The position numbers and the translations under genes are program-made. A stretch of DNA of 32,000 nucleotides from Planctopirus limnophila DSM 3776. GTDB lineage: Bacteria; Planctomycetota; Planctomycetia; Planctomycetales; Planctomycetaceae. The stretch is from positions 3,360,001 through 3,392,000 of the forward strand of contig NC_014148.1 of the NCBI RefSeq assembly GCF_000092105.1, written 5' to 3'. The notes beneath the pieces were generated by a model. It ran no database searches. It saw only the letters and a program-made list of their open reading frames with translations, and was not told the DNA's origin. Below are positions 3,006 to 25,411 of this stretch, piece by piece; the stretch's first letter is position 1, and the number at the start of each line of letters is the position of its first letter.

Positions 3006-3948
3006 TATTTCGAGGCTGCTGGAGTTCTTCCGGGAAACCCACCACGGAACCCATCGCCAGAATCTGCGGGTGCCAGGTTCGCCCCATGGCATCGCACCAG
3101 AGCTTCCCGCACTCATCCGATTCAATACCAACTTTGCCCAGATCAAGGTCCGCCGTCACACCGACTTCTGTCTGGCAGGAAACGACGGTCTGCACCAACA
3201 CACGTTCCCCGCTGCAGATCTCCACTTCGCAATAATCACCGCGTGGCCTCAATCCGCGAATCCCGGCGCGAAACTCTTGCCATTCAGTCGATTTCTGCCT
3301 TTCGGGCAAACGCCGCCCCAACAGCAGAACATCACTCCCCAACCTGCTGTAGATCTTCGCCACCGCCTGGGCCCAGCGATTACTCCCCAGCACCACCATC
3401 GACTTTGGAGTCGACCTCGCCAAAAACAATTCTCCCAGTGAAAATGGCAGCGAACTTTTGCTATTCAACGATTCATGCGGAACTTGAGGCGAAACACCAT
3501 GGCGGACAGGAGCCACCATAGATCCCGTCGCCACAATCAGCAGATGTGTCATCAGGAGTGGCCCGTCAACAACCGGCTGCTTCACCGATGGATTTGCAGC
3601 ACTCATGGGCATCACTGCAATCGAGGCGCCATCGGCCCCCACGACCTTCGCCGCACCGGGGAAACAATCAACCCGGGCCTCCCTCAAGAGCGTCTGCTGG
3701 CGTTCCTGCTCTCGTCGGCCAAAAGGAAGCAATCGACGAGCCAAAGTCTGTGAACTCGTTGCTGCGGCAAACTCATTTTGAGTGATCATTTCCAGGAATT
3801 CGGGTGACCACTGTGCCCCGACAGACTCGCTGGAGATTTCCCATGCCGACGCAGGTTCAATCAAAGCAGTTCGTAATCCCAGCCGTGCCGCCGTCGTGGC
3901 CACTTCGACCGCGAGAGCCGTTCCACCAGCAATGGTGCAATCGTACAT
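2869..3948 (-). CDS. Pyridine nucleotide-disulfide oxidoreductase-like protein (dihydrolipoamide dehydrogenase-like fold, motifs degenerate, no dimerisation domain)
   Basis: 359-aa ORF with an ATG start. The N-terminus YDCTIAGGTALAVEVATTAARLGLRTALIE aligns by eye to the FAD Rossmann start YDvvVIGgGpgGyvaAiraAqlG. VVLGSNRWAQAVAKIYSRLGSDVLLLGRR aligns to the NAD Rossmann. ILAMGSVVG aligns to the IYAiGDv FAD motif. GxGxxG glycines and the redox CxxxxC are not conserved. Confidence 0.55.
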   Translation of the reverse strand: MYDCTIAGGTALAVEVATTAARLGLRTALIEPASAWEISSESVGAQWSPEFLEMITQNEFAAATSSQTLARRLLPFGRREQERQQTLLREARVDCFPGAAKVVGADGASIAVMPMSAANPSVKQPVVDGPLLMTHLLIVATGSMVAPVRHGVSPQVPHESLNSKSSLPFSLGELFLARSTPKSMVVLGSNRWAQAVAKIYSRLGSDVLLLGRRLPERQKSTEWQEFRAGIRGLRPRGDYCEVEICSGERVLVQTVVSCQTEVGVTADLDLGKVGIESDECGKLWCDAMGRTWHPQILAMGSVVGFPEELQQPRNIRQLLEEVYLLKESRTGNSSSHPAGISRMKSPKWLSASKASLPTN

Positions 3949-4389
3949 GGCTGGATCCTTTCACGACACGCCTGACGAACCACAGTTCCCCAAACCAACA
4001 CCCGGTCAATTTCCCTCAATTCGTCCGTCCACAAATAGCCCTCGTTTCCATCGGCACAACGAACAAATAAGGGCTATGAGAAGCCTGGGTAAAATATGAA
4101 ACATTCTCTCATTCGGTTCATTTTGACGATAAAACGGATTCTCCCGACTCATTTCGCCTGAAAGCTCAATTCGAATCTCGCGCTAACTGACTCATCAAAA
4201 CCGACCACTGTGATGTGTTTGTCGCACAGCCATACCTGGCCCTTCTCCAGGCCACGCACCCAAACCACAAGACGTTTTTGTCGAAGCTCTTGAACCGTTG
4301 GGCCCGGCTTCCTAGACTTAACTTCACTTTCAGCAGGCAATCGCGGCGTTCATCACTTCAGACGAGAGATCGGAACGGATCATAATTCG

Positions 4390-13648: not shown

Positions 13649-14620
13649 GTGGATTGCCATCAATTTCATACAGAACTGGACAGCCTGAATTCTGCCAACA
13701 CCGAACTTGATCATTCCTTGTTGAGCGAACCCGCCCGGAAACATTTGCTCAATTGTCCGGATTGCCTGACTCACTGGCATGACGAAACACAGCTCAGCGC
13801 AGCCATCTCAACCTGGAAAAATTCAACCTCGAAAAAGTCCTCCGCTGCGCCTCTCCAGAGTCGAGTCAGTCGCAAATCCCCAACCAACAGCACAGCAACC
13901 CGGCATATTCAACAAGGCCGCTACATCACTCGCTGGGCCATCACCACCATTGCAGCCTGCCTTGTGCTGGGAGTGCTCGCATTTCGTGCACCTAGCTCCA
14001 TTGAAATCGTTGTTTCAACCTTCGATACCCATCGTCCGGCGGCAACTTCCGCACCACTATGGATCACCGCTGCGACATTATCGGCCAGCCAGTTCTCAGC
14101 CAGCCAGTTCTCAGGCGGTTCATCTCCTGACCAGACAGTCAGATTCTCACCTGCTTCTCAAACGAAGGCTGGGACTTCAGAATTCCACACAGCAGCGATG
14201 CAACCCTCGGATTCGATACCTGCAGCAGGTTCAACCAGCCGGCCGGAGTTGACCACCTACCTGTCATTGAGCCAGCCGGCGCTCCCTCTGGCGAAGCTGC
14301 GAGAACCGGTCGAGGCCTGGAACTCCAAACTTCAGCAAAAGCATCAGGGTCCATTTCTGGAAACTGTCGGCGGGCTTTATGTCCCTGTCCCTGCTCCACC
14401 CGTCGAGCAATGGCAGCAGGTCGCAGTCACTGTCGCTCCACTCAGCCAACACCTGGCTGATGCCTTTGCTGTCCTCTGCTCCCCCTTCCGGCAGTCAGAA
14501 GCGGAGCCTGTGGATATCCCCGGGGCATACAACGTCCCCTCATCCACCTACGAGTTTTCTCCACTGCCTTCCAGCAACAAACTCTCTCCTTATGGAAATC
14601 CAGCCTCCAGCCTGAGTTAG
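13649..14620 (+). CDS. Putative anti-sigma factor (ZAS-type HxxxCxxC N-terminus, one TM helix, Ser/Pro-rich extracytoplasmic part)
   Basis: GTG start 69 nt after the sigma gene. The N-terminus MDCHQF...ARKHLLNCPDCLTHW contains H-x3-C-x2-C. Hydrophobic segment WAITTIAACLVLGVLAF. The position immediately downstream of an ECF sigma gene also fits. Confidence 0.6.
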   Translation: MDCHQFHTELDSLNSANTELDHSLLSEPARKHLLNCPDCLTHWHDETQLSAAISTWKNSTSKKSSAAPLQSRVSRKSPTNSTATRHIQQGRYITRWAITTIAACLVLGVLAFRAPSSIEIVVSTFDTHRPAATSAPLWITAATLSASQFSASQFSGGSSPDQTVRFSPASQTKAGTSEFHTAAMQPSDSIPAAGSTSRPELTTYLSLSQPALPLAKLREPVEAWNSKLQQKHQGPFLETVGGLYVPVPAPPVEQWQQVAVTVAPLSQHLADAFAVLCSPFRQSEAEPVDIPGAYNVPSSTYEFSPLPSSNKLSPYGNPASSLS

Positions 14621-14666
14621 TTCTGCGCCAGCAAGTGCATTTCACTCGAACTGACCGAGCATGTCT

Positions 14667-16760
<2,094 letters not shown>

Positions 16761-16892: not shown

Positions 16893-16952
16893 AGAGTTTG
16901 CGTTTCATTTCGACCTACTGACAACCGTCCACATTGTTCGTGACCGCGGCAC

Positions 16953-18101
16953 TCATTTTCTTCCCACACATCGATTGAGTGCCACCAGCGCATAAGCTGT
17001 CGCCAGATTCGGGTCGCCTTCCATCCATCGGCTCGAACGATCATTCAGCCAGTTTCCATTGGCTTTCTGGAGTGCAATCAACTGAAGAGCCAGCTCATTC
17101 CTCCAGTTATGTTTTGCTCCCTTGGCATCAGTAAACTCATTGACACCATTTGCTTCCATCGCCTTGGCAAACAGATAGTAATAGTAGTAAAGACCACCCG
17201 CGCCCAGCCCCGGATTCTCTTCCAGCGTATAGTTTTTACTGATCCAGTCGAGGGCCGCTTTAACTCTCGGATCATCCGCCTTTAAGCCTGCATAGAGCAT
17301 GCTCTTAAATCCGGCATAAGTCATGCTTCCATACGACCGCAAGCCCCCTTCATCGGATTGTCCCGCAGGCGAAACACCGGGGCCATTGGGGTTGTAATAG
17401 AAACCTCCGTCATTAATCTTGGCAGCTTGCGGAGTCGTATTATGCTCAGATTCCAGGTTCTGACATCGCGACAGAAAAACCAGGGCCTTCTGGACGGCCG
17501 GGTCTTGTTCAGTCGCGCCTGTCGCCTTGAGAGCATCCAGAAAAAAGACCGTGTTGGACAGATCGGGCTTACCACCGCCCGCTTTGTAGCCCGCACCGCC
17601 GTAGGCGATGTCGGCTTTGTCGGTATTGTTCGCCTCACTATATTGAGCGCCACGCAAATACTGCTCCGCCTTTTTGATGATCTCCGTGAACTGTCCCTCG
17701 GCATTACCAGCAACTAACGCCATCACGGAAACCGAAGTTTCATAACTCGCATGCGGGCTGCCAGGGGCGGCAATTTCTCCCGTTGGCTGGGCATAACCTG
17801 CGATCCGCTGTAATCCCTTAGCCACCACAGGATCAGTCACCGGCACACCCGCATCAATCAACGCATAAACCACGAGAGCCGTAATCCCCGAGGTACGCGG
17901 CGTCGTCCAACTCCCATCCTTCATCTGCGAAGTTTTCAGGAATTCGATCGCCTTGGCCCGTGACTGATCAACGTTTGCGGCGAGCCCCTCCTCCGCCCCT
18001 TCACAAGTCGACGAAACAGGATGCACAATGTCACTCGCCTCGAACGACACCGGTAAAACGAAACAACCCGCCATCAGCGCTGCCCAACAGATTCCCCGCA
18101 T
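16953..18101 (-). CDS. Secreted prenyltransferase / squalene-oxidase-repeat (terpene-cyclase-like alpha-alpha toroid) protein
   Basis: 382-aa ORF with an N-terminal signal-like segment (WAALMAGCFVLPV). Periodic repeats contain DGSW / DGGFYY / ANGNW aromatic-Gly motifs and Ala/Leu-rich helices, as in PF13243/PF13249-type repeats. Confidence 0.6.
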   Translation of the reverse strand: MRGICWAALMAGCFVLPVSFEASDIVHPVSSTCEGAEEGLAANVDQSRAKAIEFLKTSQMKDGSWTTPRTSGITALVVYALIDAGVPVTDPVVAKGLQRIAGYAQPTGEIAAPGSPHASYETSVSVMALVAGNAEGQFTEIIKKAEQYLRGAQYSEANNTDKADIAYGGAGYKAGGGKPDLSNTVFFLDALKATGATEQDPAVQKALVFLSRCQNLESEHNTTPQAAKINDGGFYYNPNGPGVSPAGQSDEGGLRSYGSMTYAGFKSMLYAGLKADDPRVKAALDWISKNYTLEENPGLGAGGLYYYYYLFAKAMEANGVNEFTDAKGAKHNWRNELALQLIALQKANGNWLNDRSSRWMEGDPNLATAYALVALNRCVGRK

Positions 18102-18475
18102 GCTCGAACTCCTTCCCTAACCCGGCCATCTCACCACAATCTTTGCGAATACCGATTCTACTGGCTGCAAGAGATGTTCCAGAGAGAAAAGTTTGCCACA
18201 AGGTCGCAGAGAGTCGCTTTTGAACATCGGCAAAACCGAATCTGCCAGCGTCTTGCATCACCCGAACCGACACCTTGTCGCACCAAACACAGAACCGTCG
18301 CGCGTCACGCCAACCGTGATATCATTTTGGTTGAACTCTGACCCACCCGACGAAATTCTGCAGAACCACGATTCCCCAACATTCGGGAAGGTTGGGCAAA
18401 CTTCGCTGCTCGCTTGGACCACGCGGAAAATTTTCGCTCCTTCTCCCAAAAGAAGTTTTCCGCTCGCTCCCCTCG

Positions 18476-18495
18476 GAGTGTAAGCTCATACACTC
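18476..18495. promoter_or_regulatory. Inverted repeat GAGTGTA-agctca-TACACTC upstream of gene A
   Basis: 7-bp perfect arms with a 6-nt spacer, read directly. It lies about 40 nt upstream of ATG 18536, so it could be an operator or a 5'-UTR hairpin. Confidence 0.25.
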
Positions 18496-18535
18496 AGGTG
18501 CCAGTGGCCAAATCGACATCTTTGCGGGTCAGCCA

Positions 18536-19513
18536 ATGTCCACGACTTCGCCAGTTGTTCTCACTTCCCAACTGATCATTGCCCGTCTGCTAATCCCGCA
18601 GGCCAAGGCCCCCACACCAGCCACGCTCGCCAAGAGTCTCGCTCCTCTCTTCACCCAGCAGTACTCCGCCGGTGAATGGCGCGCCCTGTTCGACGAAGCC
18701 CTCGCCGCCACGCGTGCGGCCGGTCATGTGGAAGCGATCAAACTCATCCTTACCCCCGAGGGAATGGCCGCTGCCCTCGAGTTCTGCGGCTTCACCCGCG
18801 AGGAAGCACTTCCCAAGAACCTCCGCTGGAAACAACTCCTCGACAAGTACATCACGCCCCGGCTCTGCGGCTTCGCCCCGCCCGGCCCGAAAGCCAAACA
18901 CGCGGATCATCTCCTCATCGAGTTCCTCAAGCAGAGCCATCAACTCGCAGGGCCGATCACATCACTCAGCCAACTCCTCGTGGCCCTTGCCTGGAAGGAG
19001 CTGGGCATCGACTCACGGAAGAAGTTCACGCCAGCCAATGTCCTCGCCAAAGTCTCCCTGAACACCGACCGCACGCTGACGACCGCCCCCCTCGCCAAGC
19101 TGCTCTCCCAACAGTTGCTGGGAGACTCCGGCAAAGATTTCGCCCAATCACTGATCCGCCAGAAGATCCGGCAAGCCGCCACCACTCCCTCAGGCCACGT
19201 TCCGCACGCATCGCCCAACTTCACTCTGGCCGACATCCACGCCGCCCTCCCGCAGATTCCCGCCGGCCCGCTCGGCACGCACCGGGTTTTCATCCGCGAC
19301 CTGTGGCAACACCTCCCCCCAGATCGACGGGGCACGCTCGACGAATTCCGCCCGGCGCTGCTCGCCCTCCACAAGAGCCAGCAAGTGCGACTCGTCCGGG
19401 CCGACCTCACCGACCGCCTCGATCCGAGGGCCGTCGAAGAATCCCGCATCGAGGATGGCCCAGCCACATATCACCTCCTTGTGAGGGAAATCAAACCACC
19501 AGCCACCCCTTAA
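18536..19513 (+). CDS. Hypothetical protein (gene A of candidate two-gene NTPase system); no recognisable motif
   Basis: Long open frame with protein-like, Ala/Leu-rich helical composition. ATG at 18536; the track extends to TTG 18392. It ends 60 nt before the co-directional large ATPase gene. The alternative-frame 363-aa ORF is Arg/Pro-rich junk typical of off-frame GC-rich DNA. Confidence 0.7.
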   Translation: MSTTSPVVLTSQLIIARLLIPQAKAPTPATLAKSLAPLFTQQYSAGEWRALFDEALAATRAAGHVEAIKLILTPEGMAAALEFCGFTREEALPKNLRWKQLLDKYITPRLCGFAPPGPKAKHADHLLIEFLKQSHQLAGPITSLSQLLVALAWKELGIDSRKKFTPANVLAKVSLNTDRTLTTAPLAKLLSQQLLGDSGKDFAQSLIRQKIRQAATTPSGHVPHASPNFTLADIHAALPQIPAGPLGTHRVFIRDLWQHLPPDRRGTLDEFRPALLALHKSQQVRLVRADLTDRLDPRAVEESRIEDGPATYHLLVREIKPPATP

Positions 19514-19573
19514 GCACCCTCTACGTTTCCTATTTGTCTATTAGCCAACATTCTTACCTCAAGGCCTTACGAC

Positions 19574-22500
19574 ATGCCCGCCGACACCGAAACACAACTC
19601 CCCCCTCAAGCTGCCAGCCCCCTACCTGTAGTGGATCCTTACCTCCAGGCGCTCCTCTCCCCCCGGGGCGAGGAAGTCCTCCACGCCGTCTGCCAGAAGG
19701 ATCAAATCTGGCGGCACGACAACTTCGATGTCTTCGACATCCACGAGACTGCCCGCCTGCAGTTTGACAACCTCCTTCGCCGCCTAAAGGCCGAAGGAGG
19801 TGCCCCTTACGGCCTGATCCAACTGGTGCTGGGCGAGGCGGGAAGCGGCAAAACGCACCTGCTCCGGTTTTTCAGAAACCACGTTCACTACAGCAACGAT
19901 GGGTTCTGCGGCTATTTGCAGATGACGACGGGCACCCAGAACTATCCACAGTATGTCCTTTCTAATCTCATCGATTCGCTCGACGAGATTTACTTCGAAC
20001 CCGATGGCGACGAGACCGGATTGATGCGGCTCGCCGACGCCGTTGGTCAACAAGTGGAACTGTTCCTCCCCAAAGAAATACAGCGTCTTCGCGAAGACGA
20101 TTTGACCCACGATGAACTGGCCCAGCTGACCAATGAACTGGCCGACGCCCTCCAGTCCCGCCCGGGCAATCGCACGTTGGATGCGGGTGTGATTCGCGCC
20201 CTGCTCTCGCTGATTCCCCGCCATCCCAAAGTCCACACGCGGGTGCTCAAGTACCTCCGCTGCGAGCCGTTCTCCTCGTTCGACGAGAAGATCCTTCCGG
20301 AGATGCCACGTTGGACAGCCGACGATGCACCCACCCACATGATTGCCGCCCTCGGCAAGATCATGCGCCAGCTCACCAACAAGACGCTCGTCATCCTCGT
20401 CGATCAACTCGAGGAGATGGCCAATTTCGACGAAGACCCCGCCCGACTGGAACACCGCTTCCGCCACGCCATGCAGGCGATCTCCTCGCTCGTGGGCGGG
20501 ATTCCCGGCGCGCTCTGTGTCGTGGGCTGTCTCGCCGACCTCTACCACCTCATGGAGCCGCGACTTCCCGCGCCGGTTCTCGCGAGGGTCGCCACCGATC
20601 CCCGCTCGATCCAGCTCATCGCCAGCCGCACCCGCCACGAGGCGAAGCAGATCATCGAGACCCGCCTGAAATCAGTCTACGAACAAGCAGGTCTGGAGAA
20701 CCCCGAAACCATCGCCCCCTTCACGGAAGAATTCATCGACGGCCTCGAAGGACTCACCGCCCGCGACATTCTCTTCGCCTGCCGCGCGTTCCGGGATCGA
20801 CTAGCGACAGGAGAGCCTGTCGAGACGCCACCTCCTCCACCACCACCGGCGATCGCCTGGCCACAGGAATGGAATGACTTCCGCGCACGCCACACGCCCG
20901 TTATCCCGGAAGATGCTGAGCAGCAACTACGCTTGCTGCACTGGGCCATCGAACAATGCACTCTCGAACGACAACCCGCCGCCGAATGGTCGACCGATCT
21001 CCACGACGATTCGTTGCTCATTGGGGCCACCATCGGCGGCGTCACCCGCTCTTCCAAACTTCTGGCTGCGTTCTGCGATGAAAACCCCCAGGGCGGAAAG
21101 CTGCAGAAGCGAATCGAGTCCATCGTCAAACTGGCGGGCGACCAATCGGCGGCCCTCTTGCGGAATACCGCTTTCCCGGCTGTCAAAAAGGGAACCAAGA
21201 TCGGCGAACTGCTCCTCTCGCTCCCCAAGGACAAGTTCAAGCGGATCATCTGGGAAGACAGCCACTGGCGATTCCTCACCACTCTTCGCGCCTTCCACGA
21301 GCAGCATTCCATCCAGGGCCAGTATCTGGAATGGCGCACTTCCAGCCGCCCATTGAACGACGTGAAGCCTTTGGTCGATCTCCTCAACCTCGACCAGATT
21401 CCGCTGACTCCCACACCTCCGAAAATCAAGCCTCTTCCACCGGAGCCGCCAATCCCACCCGCTGCGAAGTCGCCAGTCCCACCGGCAACCAAAACGCCGT
21501 TCGAAATACCCCTGGGTTTTACCCAAGGTTTGCGACAAACTCCGGTCGTGCTCAACTCTGAAATCTTCAAAAGGCATGCGGCATTCGTTGGTGGTGCCGG
21601 GAGTGGCAAGACAACGCTCGCCCTCAATGTCATCGAGCAACTATTGCTCGCCGGCATCCCGGCAATCCTCATTGATCGCAAGGGTGATCTCGCCACCTAT
21701 GCTTCGGACGATTGGGGCACGCCCAACGAACCCGCCCTCCTCAAACGGGCCACTATCCTCAAGAAGCAACTCGACATCCGCGTCTACACCCCCGGCGACC
21801 CCACCGGCCATAACCTCCTGTTGCCGCTGATTCCCGAAGGCGTGGGGCAGATGCCGGACAATGAGCGTGAAGCCGCTCTGGAAGCAACGACAGCCAGCCT
21901 GTTGAAAATGCTCGGCTGCTCAGAAAACCAATTCAGGGAGTACCAGCCGATCCTGTTGACTGCACTGCAGGTGATCCTTGATACCACACAGGGCGAAGTC
22001 ACGTTGGAGTGGCTGGAAGAGGTGATCGGCAAGAAGGATCAGGAACTGGTCAAACATCACCGCTGGACACAACCCACGGTCTATCTGAAACTCGCCAGGG
22101 CACTCAGCGACCTGCGAATCACCCGCAGGTTGCTCCTCTCCACAGAGGGAACACCGCTCAACATCCCCCGGATGCTCTCCCCCACTGCCGATGGCCGTAC
22201 ACCCTTGTCGATCATCAGCCTCAAGTCGCTGGTCGATATGTCGGCCATCCAGTTCTGGATGTCGCGGTTCCTCATGACTCTGGGGCGCCACGTCAGTGCC
22301 ACACCCTCAGCGACATTACAGGCGGTGATCCTCCTCGACGAGGCCGATATCTACGTCCCCGCAACCAGCAAACCCTCCACCAAGGAGCCGCTGTTGAACC
22401 TGCTCAAGCGGGCTCGCTCCGGCGGACTGGGCGTCTTCCTGGCCACACAAACCCCGGGTGATCTCGATTCCACTTGCCGCAGCAACTGTGCCACCTGGGC

Positions 22501-22726
22501 CATCGGTCGGCTCAACGACAATGTGTCGATCAACAAAGTGAAATCCATGTTCAGCGACACGCCGCAACTTCTGGATCGCGTTGCGCAGCAAGGTCAGGGC
22601 GAATTCGCCCTGGCCTCCGATGGCCTGACGACCCAGTTCAAAGGCGACCGCAGCGCCATGAACACCCGCCAGCTCTCCGAACAGGAAATCTTGACCCTGG
22701 CCCGCGCGAACCGAAGCGTCGAATAA
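19574..22726 (+). CDS. 1050-aa double P-loop NTPase: N-terminal AAA/ORC-like ATPase module, central unknown module, C-terminal HerA/FtsK-superfamily (DUF87/DUF853-like) ATPase module
   Basis: Walker A no. 1 is LVLGEAGSGKTHLL (nt 19832-19858), with Walker B-like TLVILVDQLEE. Walker A no. 2 is AAFVGGAGSGKTTLAL (nt 21590-21616), followed by PAILIDRKGD, Walker B AVILLDEADIYVP (about nt 22325-22350) and GVFLATQTPGDLD (HerA/FtsK hhhhTQRPxxh-like). Poly-Pro linkers sit at about nt 20827-20849 and 21401-21500. Confidence 0.85.
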   Translation: MPADTETQLPPQAASPLPVVDPYLQALLSPRGEEVLHAVCQKDQIWRHDNFDVFDIHETARLQFDNLLRRLKAEGGAPYGLIQLVLGEAGSGKTHLLRFFRNHVHYSNDGFCGYLQMTTGTQNYPQYVLSNLIDSLDEIYFEPDGDETGLMRLADAVGQQVELFLPKEIQRLREDDLTHDELAQLTNELADALQSRPGNRTLDAGVIRALLSLIPRHPKVHTRVLKYLRCEPFSSFDEKILPEMPRWTADDAPTHMIAALGKIMRQLTNKTLVILVDQLEEMANFDEDPARLEHRFRHAMQAISSLVGGIPGALCVVGCLADLYHLMEPRLPAPVLARVATDPRSIQLIASRTRHEAKQIIETRLKSVYEQAGLENPETIAPFTEEFIDGLEGLTARDILFACRAFRDRLATGEPVETPPPPPPPAIAWPQEWNDFRARHTPVIPEDAEQQLRLLHWAIEQCTLERQPAAEWSTDLHDDSLLIGATIGGVTRSSKLLAAFCDENPQGGKLQKRIESIVKLAGDQSAALLRNTAFPAVKKGTKIGELLLSLPKDKFKRIIWEDSHWRFLTTLRAFHEQHSIQGQYLEWRTSSRPLNDVKPLVDLLNLDQIPLTPTPPKIKPLPPEPPIPPAAKSPVPPATKTPFEIPLGFTQGLRQTPVVLNSEIFKRHAAFVGGAGSGKTTLALNVIEQLLLAGIPAILIDRKGDLATYASDDWGTPNEPALLKRATILKKQLDIRVYTPGDPTGHNLLLPLIPEGVGQMPDNEREAALEATTASLLKMLGCSENQFREYQPILLTALQVILDTTQGEVTLEWLEEVIGKKDQELVKHHRWTQPTVYLKLARALSDLRITRRLLLSTEGTPLNIPRMLSPTADGRTPLSIISLKSLVDMSAIQFWMSRFLMTLGRHVSATPSATLQAVILLDEADIYVPATSKPSTKEPLLNLLKRARSGGLGVFLATQTPGDLDSTCRSNCATWAIGRLNDNVSINKVKSMFSDTPQLLDRVAQQGQGEFALASDGLTTQFKGDRSAMNTRQLSEQEILTLARANRSVE

Positions 22727-22789
22727 TCTGCAAACGGTACCAGTTTGTATTGAGGCAACAGATTTTGTTAAGGGGAGGCCTGTGTTAAA

Positions 22790-22822
22790 GGGTGGCTGGG
22801 GTTGAGTCTTCGAACCCCCAGC
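22790..22822 (+). repeat. REP-like palindromic element, copy 1 (GGGTGGCTGGGGTTGAGTCTTCGAACCCCCAGC)
   Basis: Its exact reverse complement is present at 23593-23625. It contains an internal hairpin CTGGGGTT...AACCCC(C)AG. Confidence 0.8.
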
Positions 22823-22850
22823 ACTTTTTGCTCGTATAGAAGTGTTTTGG

Positions 22851-22888
22851 GGGTCGCTGGGGTTGAGCGTCCTCGCGAACCCCCCGGC
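22851..22888 (+). repeat. REP-like element, diverged copy 2 in direct orientation (GGGTCGCTGGGGTTGAGCGTCCTCGCGAACCCCCCGGC)
   Basis: Shares GTGTT-(A/T)3-GGG..GCTGGGGTTGAG...CGAACCCCC with copy 1, about 60 nt downstream of it. It has the same hairpin potential. Confidence 0.65.
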
Positions 22889-22932
22889 TCTTGTTGCTAG
22901 TGAAAAACGGCGCTTCATTGAAGTCATCGAAT

Positions 22933-23580
22933 ATGCCACGTCGATCAAAACTACCATCGAAAGTATTTGATACGAATCAGATTGCGATTTCTGCTCCCTC
23001 CGAGAGTGAGCCCTCCAGGATGTCAATTCCTCATCGGCGCAATTACAACCTGCCGGGCCATGCCCACGAACTGACATTTTCATGCTATCTCGGTTTTCCA
23101 TTTCTCAAATCGGAAAGAGCCTGTCGATGGCTGGCGGAATCGCTTCACGAGGCACTTTGTCGGCATGATTATTCACTCTGGGCCTATGTCTTGATGCCGG
23201 AACACGCTCATGTCGTGGTGTGCCCAAGACAGAAAGCCTATCGCATTGAAGAGTTTCGAAAGTCCGTTAAGGAACCGGTTGCCCGTCATGCGATTCGATG
23301 GCTTGAACATCATGCTGTCGAGTGGATTCCCAGGATCACGCGAACTCGTGGCGCAAAAACGGAGCGATTGTTCTGGCAGTCAGGTGGCGGGTATGACCGG
23401 AACATCACGGAAAGTAAAACATTGTTACGAATGATCGATTACATTCACCTCAATCCGGTACGTCGTGGGCTTGTCGAGCGGGCGGCGGACTGGGAATGGT
23501 CAAGTGCGGCTTGGCATGCAGAAGGAAAGCCGTCGCCCATTCGAGTGGATGCAATCCCGCCGGAATGGCTTTGTCAATGA
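22933..23580 (+). CDS. REP-associated tyrosine transposase (IS200/IS605-like Y1 HUH transposase, PF01797-type)
   Basis: HUH motif in LMPEHAHVVVCP. The C-terminal catalytic-Tyr block is IDYIHLNPVRRGLVERAADWEWSS (the YIhxNPV..GLV signature of RAYTs). Start uncertain (TTG 22891, ATG 22933, ATG 23020). Confidence 0.85.
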   Translation: MPRRSKLPSKVFDTNQIAISAPSESEPSRMSIPHRRNYNLPGHAHELTFSCYLGFPFLKSERACRWLAESLHEALCRHDYSLWAYVLMPEHAHVVVCPRQKAYRIEEFRKSVKEPVARHAIRWLEHHAVEWIPRITRTRGAKTERLFWQSGGGYDRNITESKTLLRMIDYIHLNPVRRGLVERAADWEWSSAAWHAEGKPSPIRVDAIPPEWLCQ

Positions 23581-23592
23581 TTGTTGTCAAGA

Positions 23593-23625
23593 GCTGGGGG
23601 TTCGAAGACTCAACCCCAGCCACCC
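23593..23625 (-). repeat. REP-like palindromic element, copy 3 (perfect inverted copy of copy 1)
   Basis: GCTGGGGGTTCGAAGACTCAACCCCAGCCACCC is the exact reverse complement of 22790-22822. It starts 12 nt after the RAYT stop codon. Confidence 0.8.
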
Positions 23626-23731
23626 GTCATTAACTTACCACAGGCCGTACTTGGCTTGGAGGAGACAGGTGGATTCGGCCCCTTTTGAGCACATGATCTT
23701 CGGAGAACGGCGACGGGTGTGATTGCCATAA

Positions 23732-24178
23732 TTATGGGATGCCATCCGGATAGACGACCGACACCATGGCACAGATTGCCAGCTTTCCCGACCTTTGATT
23801 GCAACCTGGGCATATTGCTGTCTTTTGCCCTTCTATCTCCAATTCGAGCAATGTTTGGCAACGAGGGCATGGGATCTCGGGCAATTCAACCTTAACGGGC
23901 GCATACCACGGACCATTAGAAACCATGCCTGAGATTGCTTCACAGACATGTCTTGCAAAACGAGACCGCGTTAAAAACTCCTCGTTTGACCGCAGCCATC
24001 GTACCCAGGCATTGCGGTCGATTGACTGCACACAATGAAGCTCAAGCATGCACTGGGGGCACCATAGCGACCTGAGATTGTCCTTTTGGTAGTCGATTGG
24101 ACCGATGCGATAAGTCAGCGAGATGGTCTCCCATCGATGGCCGCATGACTCGCAATCTCCTTGGATCTCGGCGGGCAT
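23732..24178 (-). CDS. Hypothetical double zinc-ribbon protein (four CxxC pairs)
   Basis: The ORF carries CESC...CPQC and CPRC...CPGC, i.e. two Cys4 ribbon-like units. ATG at 24178; the track ORF starts at TTG 24235. No other recognisable motif. Confidence 0.5.
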   Translation of the reverse strand: MPAEIQGDCESCGHRWETISLTYRIGPIDYQKDNLRSLWCPQCMLELHCVQSIDRNAWVRWLRSNEEFLTRSRFARHVCEAISGMVSNGPWYAPVKVELPEIPCPRCQTLLELEIEGQKTAICPGCNQRSGKLAICAMVSVVYPDGIP

Positions 24179-24316
24179 CGTCCTGGCTCCCAGCGATCGA
24201 GGTTCCTGTGGCAGAACTCCTGTTTCCCATATCAAACTGTATGAAAAGTACCCGACGGCATTCGTCCGTCAATCTCAACAGCTCCAGTCGGCCTTGTCCC
24301 GTTTCTACAGGTTCAA

Positions 24317-25411
24317 TCACGTCTCGATCGTCACAGATTCAAATCCCATCTGGCCAACCTTCTCTCGGATGCGGGCTTTGACCTGTTCGACCTCTTCGAA
24401 GGTCGCTGGCGAACAGGTCACGCGCATCGTCAGCACATGCCGCTCACCATCGAGTGTCCACGCATGGAGATTTTCGACCTTCTGGACACCTGCTATCGAT
24501 TGCACCATCAACTCCAGCGCTTTCGCATCCATCCCTTCCGGGAGTGCCTGCAAAAACAACTCGCCCACTCGCCACAGATTTCGGCTCACATTCCACAACA
24601 CGAAGACCGCCAGACCAATGGCCAGCAGTGGATCGAGGAGCGGAACATGCCAGATCGACATGATCGCACCACCCACCAGCACTGCGGCCCAACCGAGTGT
24701 ATCTTCCCACAAGTGCCAACTCGCCACCTGCTCATTGAGTGTCATCCCTCCATGCAGTCGCCAGGCAGCAAACCCATTAAATGCCAATCCTAAAATCGCG
24801 ATCAGCACCACCTTCTCGCCTGCCACAGGTTGTGGATCCCACAATCGCTGTACCGATTCTCCCGTCACATAAATCAACCCGAAGATCAGCACGATGCCAG
24901 TGAGAAAGGCCCCCAAAGGCGACAATCGCCCCATCCCATAGGTGAACCGCAGACTTCGTGGTTGCCGTGAAATGATCTGCAGCCACCACGCGAGGCCCAG
25001 CGACAGGCAATCACCCAGGTCATGCACGGCATCTGTCGTAATCGCAATGCTGTTCGTCCAGTAACCCCCTGCAAACTCGATGATCGTAAACAGCAGGTTC
25101 AACCCAAACGCAATCCCCAGATTGATACTGGCCCCATGAGCATGGAGATGCCCGTGCCCATGCCCGTGCCCATGACCATGACCATGACCACACGAACGAA
25201 CCGGCACGGTTGGCAGCCCCTGCTGCACAGCACCTGACCGATGGTCATGCCGGTGACCATGGTCATGATCGTGGTCGTGATCATGTCCACAACCAGCCGA
25301 TTCACAATGGTCAGCAGGAGAGTTTGGCTGGTTGTGGACTTCAGGTTTATTCAACAACGCGAACCATCCCCTCACATGGCGAACATCCCGGCAACAGGTA
25401 CCCCATCGCAC
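24317..25411 (-). CDS. Cation diffusion facilitator (CDF) family divalent-metal efflux transporter (CzcD/ZitB-like) with His-rich N-terminal extension
   Basis: Six predicted TM segments. CDF motifs SIAITTDAVHDLGD (TM2 HxxxD) and WHLWEDTLGW (TM5). C-terminal cytoplasmic domain HAWTLDGERHVLTMRV. N-terminal tracts HDHDHDHDHGHRHDH and GHGHGHGHGHGHGHLHAHG. GTG start at 25411 is uncertain. Confidence 0.9.
   Translation of the reverse strand: MRWGTCCRDVRHVRGWFALLNKPEVHNQPNSPADHCESAGCGHDHDHDHDHGHRHDHRSGAVQQGLPTVPVRSCGHGHGHGHGHGHGHLHAHGASINLGIAFGLNLLFTIIEFAGGYWTNSIAITTDAVHDLGDCLSLGLAWWLQIISRQPRSLRFTYGMGRLSPLGAFLTGIVLIFGLIYVTGESVQRLWDPQPVAGEKVVLIAILGLAFNGFAAWRLHGGMTLNEQVASWHLWEDTLGWAAVLVGGAIMSIWHVPLLDPLLAIGLAVFVLWNVSRNLWRVGELFLQALPEGMDAKALELMVQSIAGVQKVENLHAWTLDGERHVLTMRVTCSPATFEEVEQVKARIREKVGQMGFESVTIET

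Follow-up and report, generated by a model that had tools for sequence, protein, structure and literature searches.

A nuclease-less gene pair of Planctopirus limnophila as a probable variant of the predicted Orc/Cdc6-coupled HerA/FtsK capture systems

What kind of system is encoded by two adjacent genes of Planctopirus limnophila DSM 3776, here called A and B, of which the second specifies a fused double ATPase and at which standard tools such as PADLOC detect nothing? The pair was analysed within a 32 kb stretch of the genome (the window, within which all positions are counted). A preliminary description of this DNA had presented A and B as two co-directional open reading frames (ORFs) lying 60 nt apart, an orphan protein followed by a double NTPase, and had proposed an uncharacterized two-gene system in an accessory context. 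The observations proved to be largely right and their interpretation partly so: the coordinates of both genes and the spacer on the same strand were upheld, while the family status of A, the number of genes in the system, the novelty of its architecture and the nature of its surroundings all had to be revised. A and B are most plausibly the core of an N-A-B gene family that would form a DNA-binding and translocating machine, a reading to which a probability of roughly 0.6 is assigned, and the pair corresponds to a nuclease-less form of the Orc/Cdc6-coupled `HerA/FtsK capture systems' that were predicted computationally by Rakesh, Aravind & Krishnan (Nucleic Acids Res., 2024; PMC10853773).

Across the family, A and B have been conserved as one functional pair, and they co-evolve. 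Six-frame ORFs from 80 loci encoding B relatives in species-representative genomes were searched with a profile of A, and 78 of 82 loci proved to carry an A homologue directly 5′ of B in the same orientation, the remaining four being contigs that end at B; the co-occurrence across genomes on which the proposal of a system had been made to depend was thus borne out. The pairwise identities of A and B are correlated (r = 0.90), with A diverging faster (mean identity of 31% versus 44%). At one locus (L040:6294-10760) the A frame is merged in-frame with B, which may represent either a natural fusion or a frameshift arising from metagenome assembly. The view of A as an orphan would have been favoured by a word-indexed homology search, which returned six matches for A alone and 17 with a profile, but was overturned by locus-based hidden Markov model and exhaustive profile searches, the latter recovering 2363 representative clusters (E ≤ 1e-3), of which 1434 remained under a threshold of E ≤ 1e-10, with most of the proteins measuring 330-400 aa. 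The pair occurs in Planctomycetota, Myxococcota, a large group of Hyphomicrobiaceae, Gammaproteobacteria (Thiocystis and Nitrosomonas), Verrucomicrobia and Desulfobacterales. The neighbour-joining tree of B is incongruent with taxonomy and mixes sequences of Gammaproteobacteria, Verrucomicrobia, Desulfobacterales and Planctomycetota, which together with flanks that vary from lineage to lineage speaks for horizontal spread, and clustering of neighbouring genes disclosed none common to all loci besides A and B themselves, the conservation of context being restricted to individual clades.

The widespread form of the system contains three genes, and not two as first supposed. A profile search combined with gene calls revealed, directly 5′ of A in about 30 loci, a gene (N) that encodes a protein of 373-418 aa with a C-terminal DUF559/MTES_1575 domain and in many cases shares a few bases with A. 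This domain matches a DUF559 structure (PDB entry 3hrl, 1e-7) and the EDxHD homing endonuclease 3r3p, and residues Glu44, Asp46, Glu57, Asp59 and His63 are invariant (alignment A6), so that N is probably an active endonuclease of the DUF559/EDxHD type. Restriction and homing enzymes typically have nucleases of this type. On the B tree, loci with N occur in every branch outside the Hyphomicrobiaceae, and N is missing in four clades, namely Planctopirus, the Sorangium/Chondromyces/Minicystis group, Cystobacter and the whole of the Hyphomicrobiaceae; the sister of Planctopirus (L001) carries it. Judged from this distribution in sequence data, N-A-B is the ancestral and widespread form, from which N has been lost on separate occasions in no fewer than four clades. 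Since N is present in relatives and no ORF of the window resembles it, the window holds a derived, nuclease-less N-A-B operon.

Loss of the nuclease has not been followed by decay: the nuclease-less pair is functional and under purifying selection. Within Planctopirus, A and B have ratios of nonsynonymous to synonymous substitution rates (dN/dS) of 0.14-0.15 and 0.09-0.18, respectively, and all four Walker motifs, the arginine fingers and the sensor glutamine of B are kept in every nuclease-less clade (Planctopirus, Sorangium and Hyphomicrobiaceae).

The AlphaFold2 (AF2) model of B (predicted local distance difference test score, pLDDT, of 89.5) comprises five parts. That B fuses two complete P-loop modules, one of ORC/AAA type and one of HerA/FtsK type, had been recognized from the outset and is corroborated by an alignment of 112 homologous sequences, from which the conservation of all motifs in B was read and in which both Walker A/B pairs are invariant, as well as by Pfam matches of each module above the respective cut-offs. 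Residues 65-365 scored 39.1 bits with AAA_16 (cut-off 32.6, 1.4e-9), 38.8 bits with AAA_22 (cut-off 27, 1.4e-9) and 27.3 bits with nSTAND1 (cut-off 27.1, 3.7e-6). Because the ORC-CDC6-like model reached only 13.7 bits, the class of the N-module is given broadly as ORC-like and no finer clade is proposed; the NCBIfam models of the Sll1717 family and of BrxD stayed below cut-off. The Walker B motif of this module is non-canonical, with Asp277 and Gln278 invariant and Glu280 nearly so across all clades. AAA+ proteins usually have a catalytic glutamate where B has a glutamine, and the glutamate-to-glutamine change is the one that experimenters introduce to hold AAA+ proteins in their ATP state. 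An invariant DQxE motif suggests that this module works as a slow nucleotide switch rather than as a motor. In homologues of B from Kofleriaceae, Haliangiales and Polyangiales, the protein begins with a conserved helical extension of about 190 aa bearing the motif LAQLALLDDCLRVAHLAIEADG.I..DE, seen about 600 nt 5′ of the B match at 14 loci (L018, L020, L024, L028, L032, L035, L037, L038, L041, L046, L062, L072, L076 and L079); it has no Pfam match, and its resemblance to TerB is by eye only.

Between the two ATPases lies a domain whose predicted core follows the α-β-β-β-α-β order of restriction endonuclease (REase)-like folds (residues 448-530; DSSP helices 448-466 and 509-521, strands 470-476, 481-487, 496-500 and 525-530) and is continued by helices spanning residues 562-604. 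Its conserved residues are Trp433, Cys501, Gly507/Gly508, Leu510, Arg530, Arg566 and Trp587, none of which is an aspartate, glutamate or lysine, and no conserved acidic/lysine triad is present in any clade. Neither Pfam searches with 13 homologues nor PDB profile searches or hhalign returned a credible match to this domain, and its origin as a duplicate of the nuclease domain of N was rejected, hhalign giving a probability of 0.07% against the latter. Taken together with the published description of capture systems, the modelled topology makes this domain a candidate for a catalytically dead REase fold. The halves of B are then joined by a proline-rich linker, TPTPPKIKPLPPEPPIPPAAKSPVPPATK, which is predicted to be disordered (pLDDT below 50 for residues 614-637).

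The C-module of B is a RecA-fold motor of the HerA/FtsK type. Over residues 652-1011, HerA_C (38.1 bits) and DUF87 (33.6 bits) exceeded their curated cut-offs, PDB profiles matched HerA and YjgR, and mad8 and HerA models responded in PADLOC. Foldseek comparison of the C-terminal half with the PDB retrieved hexameric HerA translocases (9x1m, E = 2.8e-13; 4d2i), HerA of the Sir2 (8wod) and DUF4297 systems, and further HerA-class entries (8xau, 9c1m and 8ziq), the best match normalized to target length being the C-terminal domain of DndH (7es4; target-normalized TM-score of 0.67, E = 2.8e-12). A sensor-1 glutamine at the end of strand 4 with an arginine finger upstream is a hallmark of the HerA/FtsK clade (PMC10853773); in B, Arg946 and Arg948 are invariant and Gln959, which follows the modelled strand 952-958, is nearly so. 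In the model, the ATPase core is preceded by no more than two short strands. Helices 762-779, 784-804, 811-819, 823-828 and 834-850 are inserted between core strands 733-738 and 876-882, an arrangement like the `4-helical bundle insert' variant of capture systems (PMC10853773).

For A, the absence of a recognizable motif noted in the preliminary description was reproduced, as searches against Pfam, PADLOC and NCBIfam gave no match. Its AF2 model (pLDDT of 78.9) is helical, with winged-helix-like units at the N- and C-terminal ends, the former built from helices 6-17, 28-38 and 45-61, a short β-pair and helix 74-83. A weak profile match to the winged helix-turn-helix (wHTH) of DtxR/MntR (E = 0.017) and scattered weak wHTH matches in Pfam among homologues, including Mrr_N, are in line with this topology. 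Foldseek of the model against the PDB and BFVD returned nothing at E ≤ 1e-3 and only weak matches to PadR, MukF and SSV1 F-93 (probability of 0.77 for F-93), for which reason A is placed in no specific fold family; the predicted topology and the weak matches suggest a helical, multi-(w)HTH partner of the double ATPase. The C-terminal α/β module carries the motif G.FG..K.FIS..W ... FK..L..AHR..L.L.RADL ... SE ... FHF, with Leu275, Ala289, Ser303 and His313 invariant (alignment A2). In an unrelated protein of 693 aa encoded outside the window (P0248), a kinase-like N-terminal portion precedes four tandem domains of about 95 aa of this kind, with the repeat motif GRFG..KVFIS.IW...FK..L..ANR..L.L.RADLV...SE...FHF. 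Because it occurs there in four tandem copies, the C-terminal module of A is an autonomous, repeatable domain, which may bind DNA or a partner.

Table 1. Coordinates of the A-B genes, their predicted domains and motifs, and the adjoining features (positions within the window; residues refer to the encoded protein)
Feature	Position	Strand	Remarks
Squalene-cyclase-like gene	16953-18101	minus	Divergent from A
Divergent intergenic region	18102..18535	.	Between squalene-cyclase-like gene and A; presumed A-B promoter region
Gene A	18536-19513	+	Plim_2605, ADG68429.1; ATG 18536 to TAA 19513; 325 aa
A, N-terminal winged-helix-like domain (predicted)	18551..18784	+	Residues 6-83; AF2 helices
A, C-terminal α/β module	19217..19483	+	Residues 228-316, ~90 aa; most conserved part of the A family
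Gene B	19574-22726	+	ATG 19574; ADG68430.1 / WP_013110861.1 at 100% identity; 1050 aa; fused double ATPase
B, N-module	19745..20806	+	Residues 58-411; AAA+ ATPase of the AAA_16/AAA_22 (ORC/Cdc6-STAND) type, including a helical lid
N-module Walker A, GEAGSGKTH	19832..19858	+	Residues 87-95; G87, G90, G92, K93, T94 and H95 invariant in 112 sequences
N-module Walker B, D277-Q278-L-E280	20402..20413	+	VDQLE, residues 276-280; non-canonical
B, middle domain	20858..21385	+	Residues 429-604; core of REase-like topology, then helical bundle; candidate inactive REase + HTH (helix-turn-helix)
B, linker	21407..21493	+	Residues 612-640; proline-rich, disordered
B, C-module	21503..22714	+	Residues 644-1047; HerA/FtsK-type RecA-fold motor, no HAS barrel
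C-module Walker A, GGAGSGKTT	21590..21616	+	Residues 673-681; G673, K679, T680 and T681 invariant
C-module helical bundle insert	21857..22123	+	Residues 762-850; five helices inside the HerA/FtsK core
C-module Walker B, D922-E923-A-D925	22337..22348	+	LLDEAD, residues 920-925; invariant in 112 sequences
Arginine finger(s) R946/R948 and sensor-1 Q959	22409..22450	+	End of core strand 4
Inverted repeats of 37 nt	22790-22826 and 23589-23625		Bracket the RAYT; 97% complementary
REP-associated tyrosine transposase (RAYT)	22891-23580		NF047646, 84.8 bits (cut-off 80)
Cys-rich ORF	23732-24235	minus	167 aa; weak Zn-ribbon-type matches HypA, Zn_ribbon_6 and IBR, E 0.006-0.017

These features are compatible with B being an ATP-driven DNA machine. 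In such a machine the N-terminal ORC/Cdc6-STAND module would probably serve as a nucleotide-dependent switch or loader and, together with the degenerate REase-fold and helical domain, would bind DNA without cutting it, the proline-rich linker tethering this head to the C-terminal motor. Homology to HerA, FtsK and the C-terminal domain of DndH suggests that this motor would act as a ring-forming pump of double-stranded DNA. Protein A most likely supplies recognition of the DNA or target, or else bridges B to its partners. In complete systems, B would capture DNA and feed it to N for cleavage, whereby plasmids, phages or conjugating DNA would be restricted, as the published hypothesis holds. No linked nuclease is available to the Planctopirus pair, which would therefore depend on an unlinked effector or operate by capture and translocation alone.

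Several observations weigh against assigning the pair to such a capture machine. An N-profile search of all ORFs in the 32 kb window found no match, and the restriction step cannot act there in cis because there is no nuclease gene; the inactive-REase and winged-helix assignments derive from predicted topology and weak matches; and a literature search found no experimental work on any member of the capture systems or of the A-B family. The position of the pair in Planctopirus is stable and surrounded by housekeeping genes; in about 26-31 species of Hyphomicrobiaceae it lies beside cell-wall genes. This pattern is atypical for defence islands. Full-length B was absent from 72,556 plasmids, 50,697 phage genomes and the IMG/VR contigs, the plasmids yielding only three partial matches of about 37% and the phage genomes and IMG/VR none, and PADLOC applied to the 89 nearest neighbour ORFs returned only generic Ser/Thr-kinase models (PD-T4-6 and mad6) and repeat models, an uninformative outcome. 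On the other hand, several loci of Polyangia carry genes of a different kind: in Sorangium, Chondromyces and Minicystis, B is followed by a same-strand NACHT/AAA_16-WD40 STAND protein (1040-1280 aa) and then by an EAD1-trypsin gene (L006, L007, L008, L017, L022, L050 and L052), and at another locus (L040:10864-13089) the gene 3′ of B encodes a caspase with bacterial Death-like domain 3 (bDLD3). NACHT-WD40, EAD1-trypsin and caspase-Death-like genes are typical of conflict systems. With synteny and the absence from plasmids and phages set against the incongruent tree and the conflict-gene neighbours, the evidence for a defence role is circumstantial and mixed, and defence itself has about even odds.

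Stable synteny also speaks for a role in cellular DNA maintenance, in which A-B, and perhaps N-A-B, would be an end-processing or repair complex resembling HerA-NurA or a chromosome translocase with A as its DNA-targeting subunit. Besides the collinear housekeeping genes of three Planctopirus genomes, this explanation is favoured by the single conserved context in Hyphomicrobiaceae (a CAP-domain gene upstream in 26 loci, a transglycosylase/penicillin-binding protein (PBP)-like gene downstream in 18 loci, and D-Ala-D-Ala carboxypeptidase and MoeA genes among the neighbours in 18-26 species), by the absence of B from the plasmids, phages and viral contigs searched, by the strong purifying selection on both genes and by the pairing of a HerA-type motor with a nuclease, which follows the archaeal and bacterial HerA-NurA repair logic (structural matches 9x1m and 7wrw). 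It is nevertheless rather unlikely, given the patchy cross-phylum distribution and mixed B tree, the presence of two copies in genomes such as that of Chondromyces apiculatus (L006 and L021), the differing flanks in every N-containing lineage, the fast evolution of A, the DUF559/EDxHD rather than NurA type of the nuclease and the NACHT-WD40, EAD1-trypsin and caspase-Death-like neighbours in Polyangia. The preliminary description had named conserved core synteny in all relatives, unconnected with islands, as the pattern that would speak against its proposal; this pattern holds in Planctopirus and Hyphomicrobiaceae, and does not extend to the family as a whole.

The nuclease-less pair, which has become fixed in Planctopirus as well as in the Sorangium/Polyangia clade and a large clade of Hyphomicrobiaceae, may also be a domesticated or re-wired capture system that no longer cuts DNA, instead recognizing particular DNA and pumping or expelling it, serving the chromosome or acting as a sensor for effectors other than nucleases, such as the NACHT-WD40, EAD1-trypsin or caspase proteins encoded beside it in Polyangia, with the DQxE switch gating the motor; this idea is tentative and considered improbable. 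Another possibility, in which the loss of N reflects effector exchange and A-B would be a DNA sensor or translocase whose effectors are unlinked or of another kind (suicide effectors of the protease type, or a nuclease gene at some other place in the genome), agrees with the separate losses of N in four or more clades, during which A-B kept all motifs, with the NACHT-WD40, EAD1-trypsin and caspase-bDLD3 genes that follow B in Polyangia, and with the domain shuffling among polypeptides and effectors stressed in PMC10853773. Even so, NACHT-WD40 plus EAD1-trypsin is a self-contained conflict system of a known type that may be a mere neighbour, and A-B has no comparable neighbours in either the window or the Hyphomicrobiaceae, so this reading is judged quite unlikely. 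That the pair might instead be an inert, decaying remnant of a defence system, or cargo or machinery of a RAYT/REP or conjugative element with a coupling-protein-like pump, could be argued from the missing nuclease gene, the RAYT with REP-like inverted repeats 65-165 nt 3′ of B and the weak P-loop matches to TraD, TrwB and FtsK. This is very improbable, as the evidence from selection and synteny already refutes it for the most part: dN/dS is low, the ORFs are intact and their motifs invariant in three Planctopirus genomes, and A-B is retained in P. hydrillae and in a Planctomyces metagenome-assembled genome (MAG) in which the RAYT region is absent or different. Moreover, TraD and TrwB remain below cut-off with matches confined to about 50 residues around Walker A, and no relatives occur on plasmids. 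The core of an N-A-B machine thus remains the preferred reading of the locus.

In the window, A-B is divergent from a housekeeping block, as originally noted, and is separated from it by the intergenic region that presumably contains the promoter of the operon. This region holds neither an ORF with homologues nor a remnant of the N gene and gave no convincing σ70-type match; no terminator-like site was found in the spacer between A and B, and a promoter and terminator scan of positions 18000-23000 gave nothing beyond shuffled expectation. Enolase, a riboflavin-synthase-like gene, a cation-efflux gene, LipB and PFK are further neighbours. The G+C content of A-B (0.59-0.63) differs from that of most flanks (0.53-0.56), which is weak evidence because the adjoining enolase gene is also at 0.59-0.61. 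The REP/RAYT element reported 3′ of B is genuine: each of its 37-nt inverted repeats contains the hairpin GCTGGGGTT...AACCCCCAGC, and a third, partial copy lies at 22851-22867. The element adjoins the Cys-rich ORF in a 1.6 kb segment (22727-24319) that P. hydrillae and the Planctomyces MAG either lack or have replaced by other DNA, the Cys-rich ORF not being kept with A-B at the other Planctopirus loci. A-B and both flanks are collinear across the three genomes, and the RAYT and the Zn-ribbon ORF are therefore placed outside the A-B unit; the accessory context formerly deduced from these two features and from base composition does not stand. A second variable spot, between enolase and the squalene-cyclase-like gene, holds insertions of 2.0 kb in P. 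hydrillae (L003:5383-7362) and 1.2 kb in the Planctomyces MAG (L004:2204-3397) that are absent at 16905-16967 of the window.

Some further neighbours were observed at individual loci of the family. YcaO and TfuA genes lie upstream in Sorangium, and a gene with an Ntox47 toxin domain is found at L015:5803-7251. One N-A-B operon (L085) adjoins an AAA_15/AAA_23 ATPase and a 258 aa partner (14399-16396), in a layout like those of Gabija, Septu and PARIS, and a UPF0175/DUF3368 toxin-antitoxin-like pair (3548-4269); it is the only clearly defence-island-like context among the N-containing loci inspected.

If the capture hypothesis is true, the family would represent a widespread immune strategy in which an ORC-like loader and a HerA/FtsK pump seize foreign DNA for a nuclease. 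Its thousands of clusters are distributed over Myxococcota, Planctomycetota, Hyphomicrobiaceae and others, lineages with a poorly known defence repertoire. The most intriguing aspect is the existence of natural nuclease-less lineages, a natural experiment in which both ATPases and the putative winged-helix partner have been selected without the presumed effector, and which can show whether capture and translocation alone are functional or which effector acts in trans. With Lys93, Lys679, Glu923, Asp277/Gln278, the catalytic Glu/Asp/His set of N and the C-terminal domain of A as testable handles, A-B is well suited to become the first capture system whose function is put to the test.

Compared with known systems, no end-to-end match of A or B to BREX, YjgR or coupling proteins reached cut-off, and the previously noted mismatch with the Sir2-HerA and DUF4297-HerA architectures was confirmed. 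Systems that combine HerA with a partner (Sir2-HerA, DUF4297-HerA and HerA-NurA) share with A-B a HerA motor, which is the top structural class for B, and the combination of an ATPase with an unrelated partner; B differs in lacking a HAS barrel and carrying an additional AAA+ module, and the partner is not Sir2, DUF4297/Cap4-like or NurA. The curated models are far below cut-off (HerA_antiphage, NF042943, 27.7 bits versus 800; HerA_antiphage_2, NF042944, 21.9 versus 850), PADLOC HerA models cover only 60-120 residues of B, and A has no Sir2 or DUF4297 match. HerA-NurA was rejected for the absence of NurA and of the HAS barrel and the presence of a DUF559 endonuclease as the partner in relatives.

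DndH of DndFGH resembles B in its sensor-1 glutamine and upstream arginine finger and in joining a translocase to active or inactive nuclease and DNA-binding modules. Unlike B, it has about 1700 aa, with an inactive SWI2/SNF2 module, β-sandwiches, target-recognition domains, a dead methylase and an active REase (PMC10853773). Only the C-terminal ATPase is alike, DndF and DndG are missing, the PADLOC DndH match (E = 0.003) spans about 80 residues, and A has no detectable match in sequence or fold to DndG, SspB or FokI and none to the DndG/DptG/SspB models of PADLOC. The N-module shares with BrxD (DUF2791) and BrxC of BREX a broad AAA_16/ORC-like P-loop, and one homologue (P0089) is named DUF2791/BrxD by NCBI; the BrxD model NF033438 gave 11.9 bits versus a cut-off of 350, BrxC did not match, and PglX, PglZ, BrxA, BrxB and BrxL were not found nearby. 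Mad8 of MADS is the best PADLOC match (residues 666-1011 of B against 26-284 of 314, E = 1.4e-16, 59 bits, rising to 88 bits in B homologues), but Mad8 consists of one module only (about 314 aa) and detection requires MAD6, MAD7 and MAD8 in one operon, the window having neither mad6 nor mad7. TraD (TIGR03743, 32 bits versus 366), TrwB_AAD_bind (20.2 versus 20.5), FtsK_SpoIIIE (15.4 versus 24) and YjgR (DUF853; HerA_C/YjgR matches over only about 70 residues around Walker A) were likewise discarded, as were DpdH (PADLOC E = 0.009 over about 40 residues), CedB/D, EccC and KaiC, whose matches are partial and far below cut-off.

The closest relatives are the capture systems, so that the architecture, formerly taken as uncharacterized, turns out to have been described computationally as a set of domains. 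Their inventory comprises an Orc/CDC6 ATPase, an inactive REase after the ATPase core, wHTH domains, a HerA/FtsK ATPase (with a four-helix insert in one subset), an active REase and a fast-evolving multi-wHTH protein, shuffled among polypeptides and effectors, and the authors propose that the ORC-like module localizes the apparatus on DNA while HerA/FtsK intercepts invader DNA and pumps it to the nuclease (PMC10853773); a paper of 2026 repeats the description (PMC12839542). The window departs from it. The active endonuclease, one of the usual core domains (PMC10853773), is missing from the window and present nearby in the ~30 related loci, and A-B lies in stable synteny rather than in the mobile, patchy neighbourhood of capture systems, a patchiness that the A-B family as a whole does display. 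On the other hand, the N-module is an AAA+ ATPase of the Orc/CDC6 type, the C-module belongs to the HerA/FtsK clade and includes the helical insert, and the predicted domain inventory and order of N-A-B, arrived at independently and compared by published description, agree with those of capture systems (PMC10853773). A-B is hence not a categorically new system but a nuclease-less variant of the predicted capture systems.

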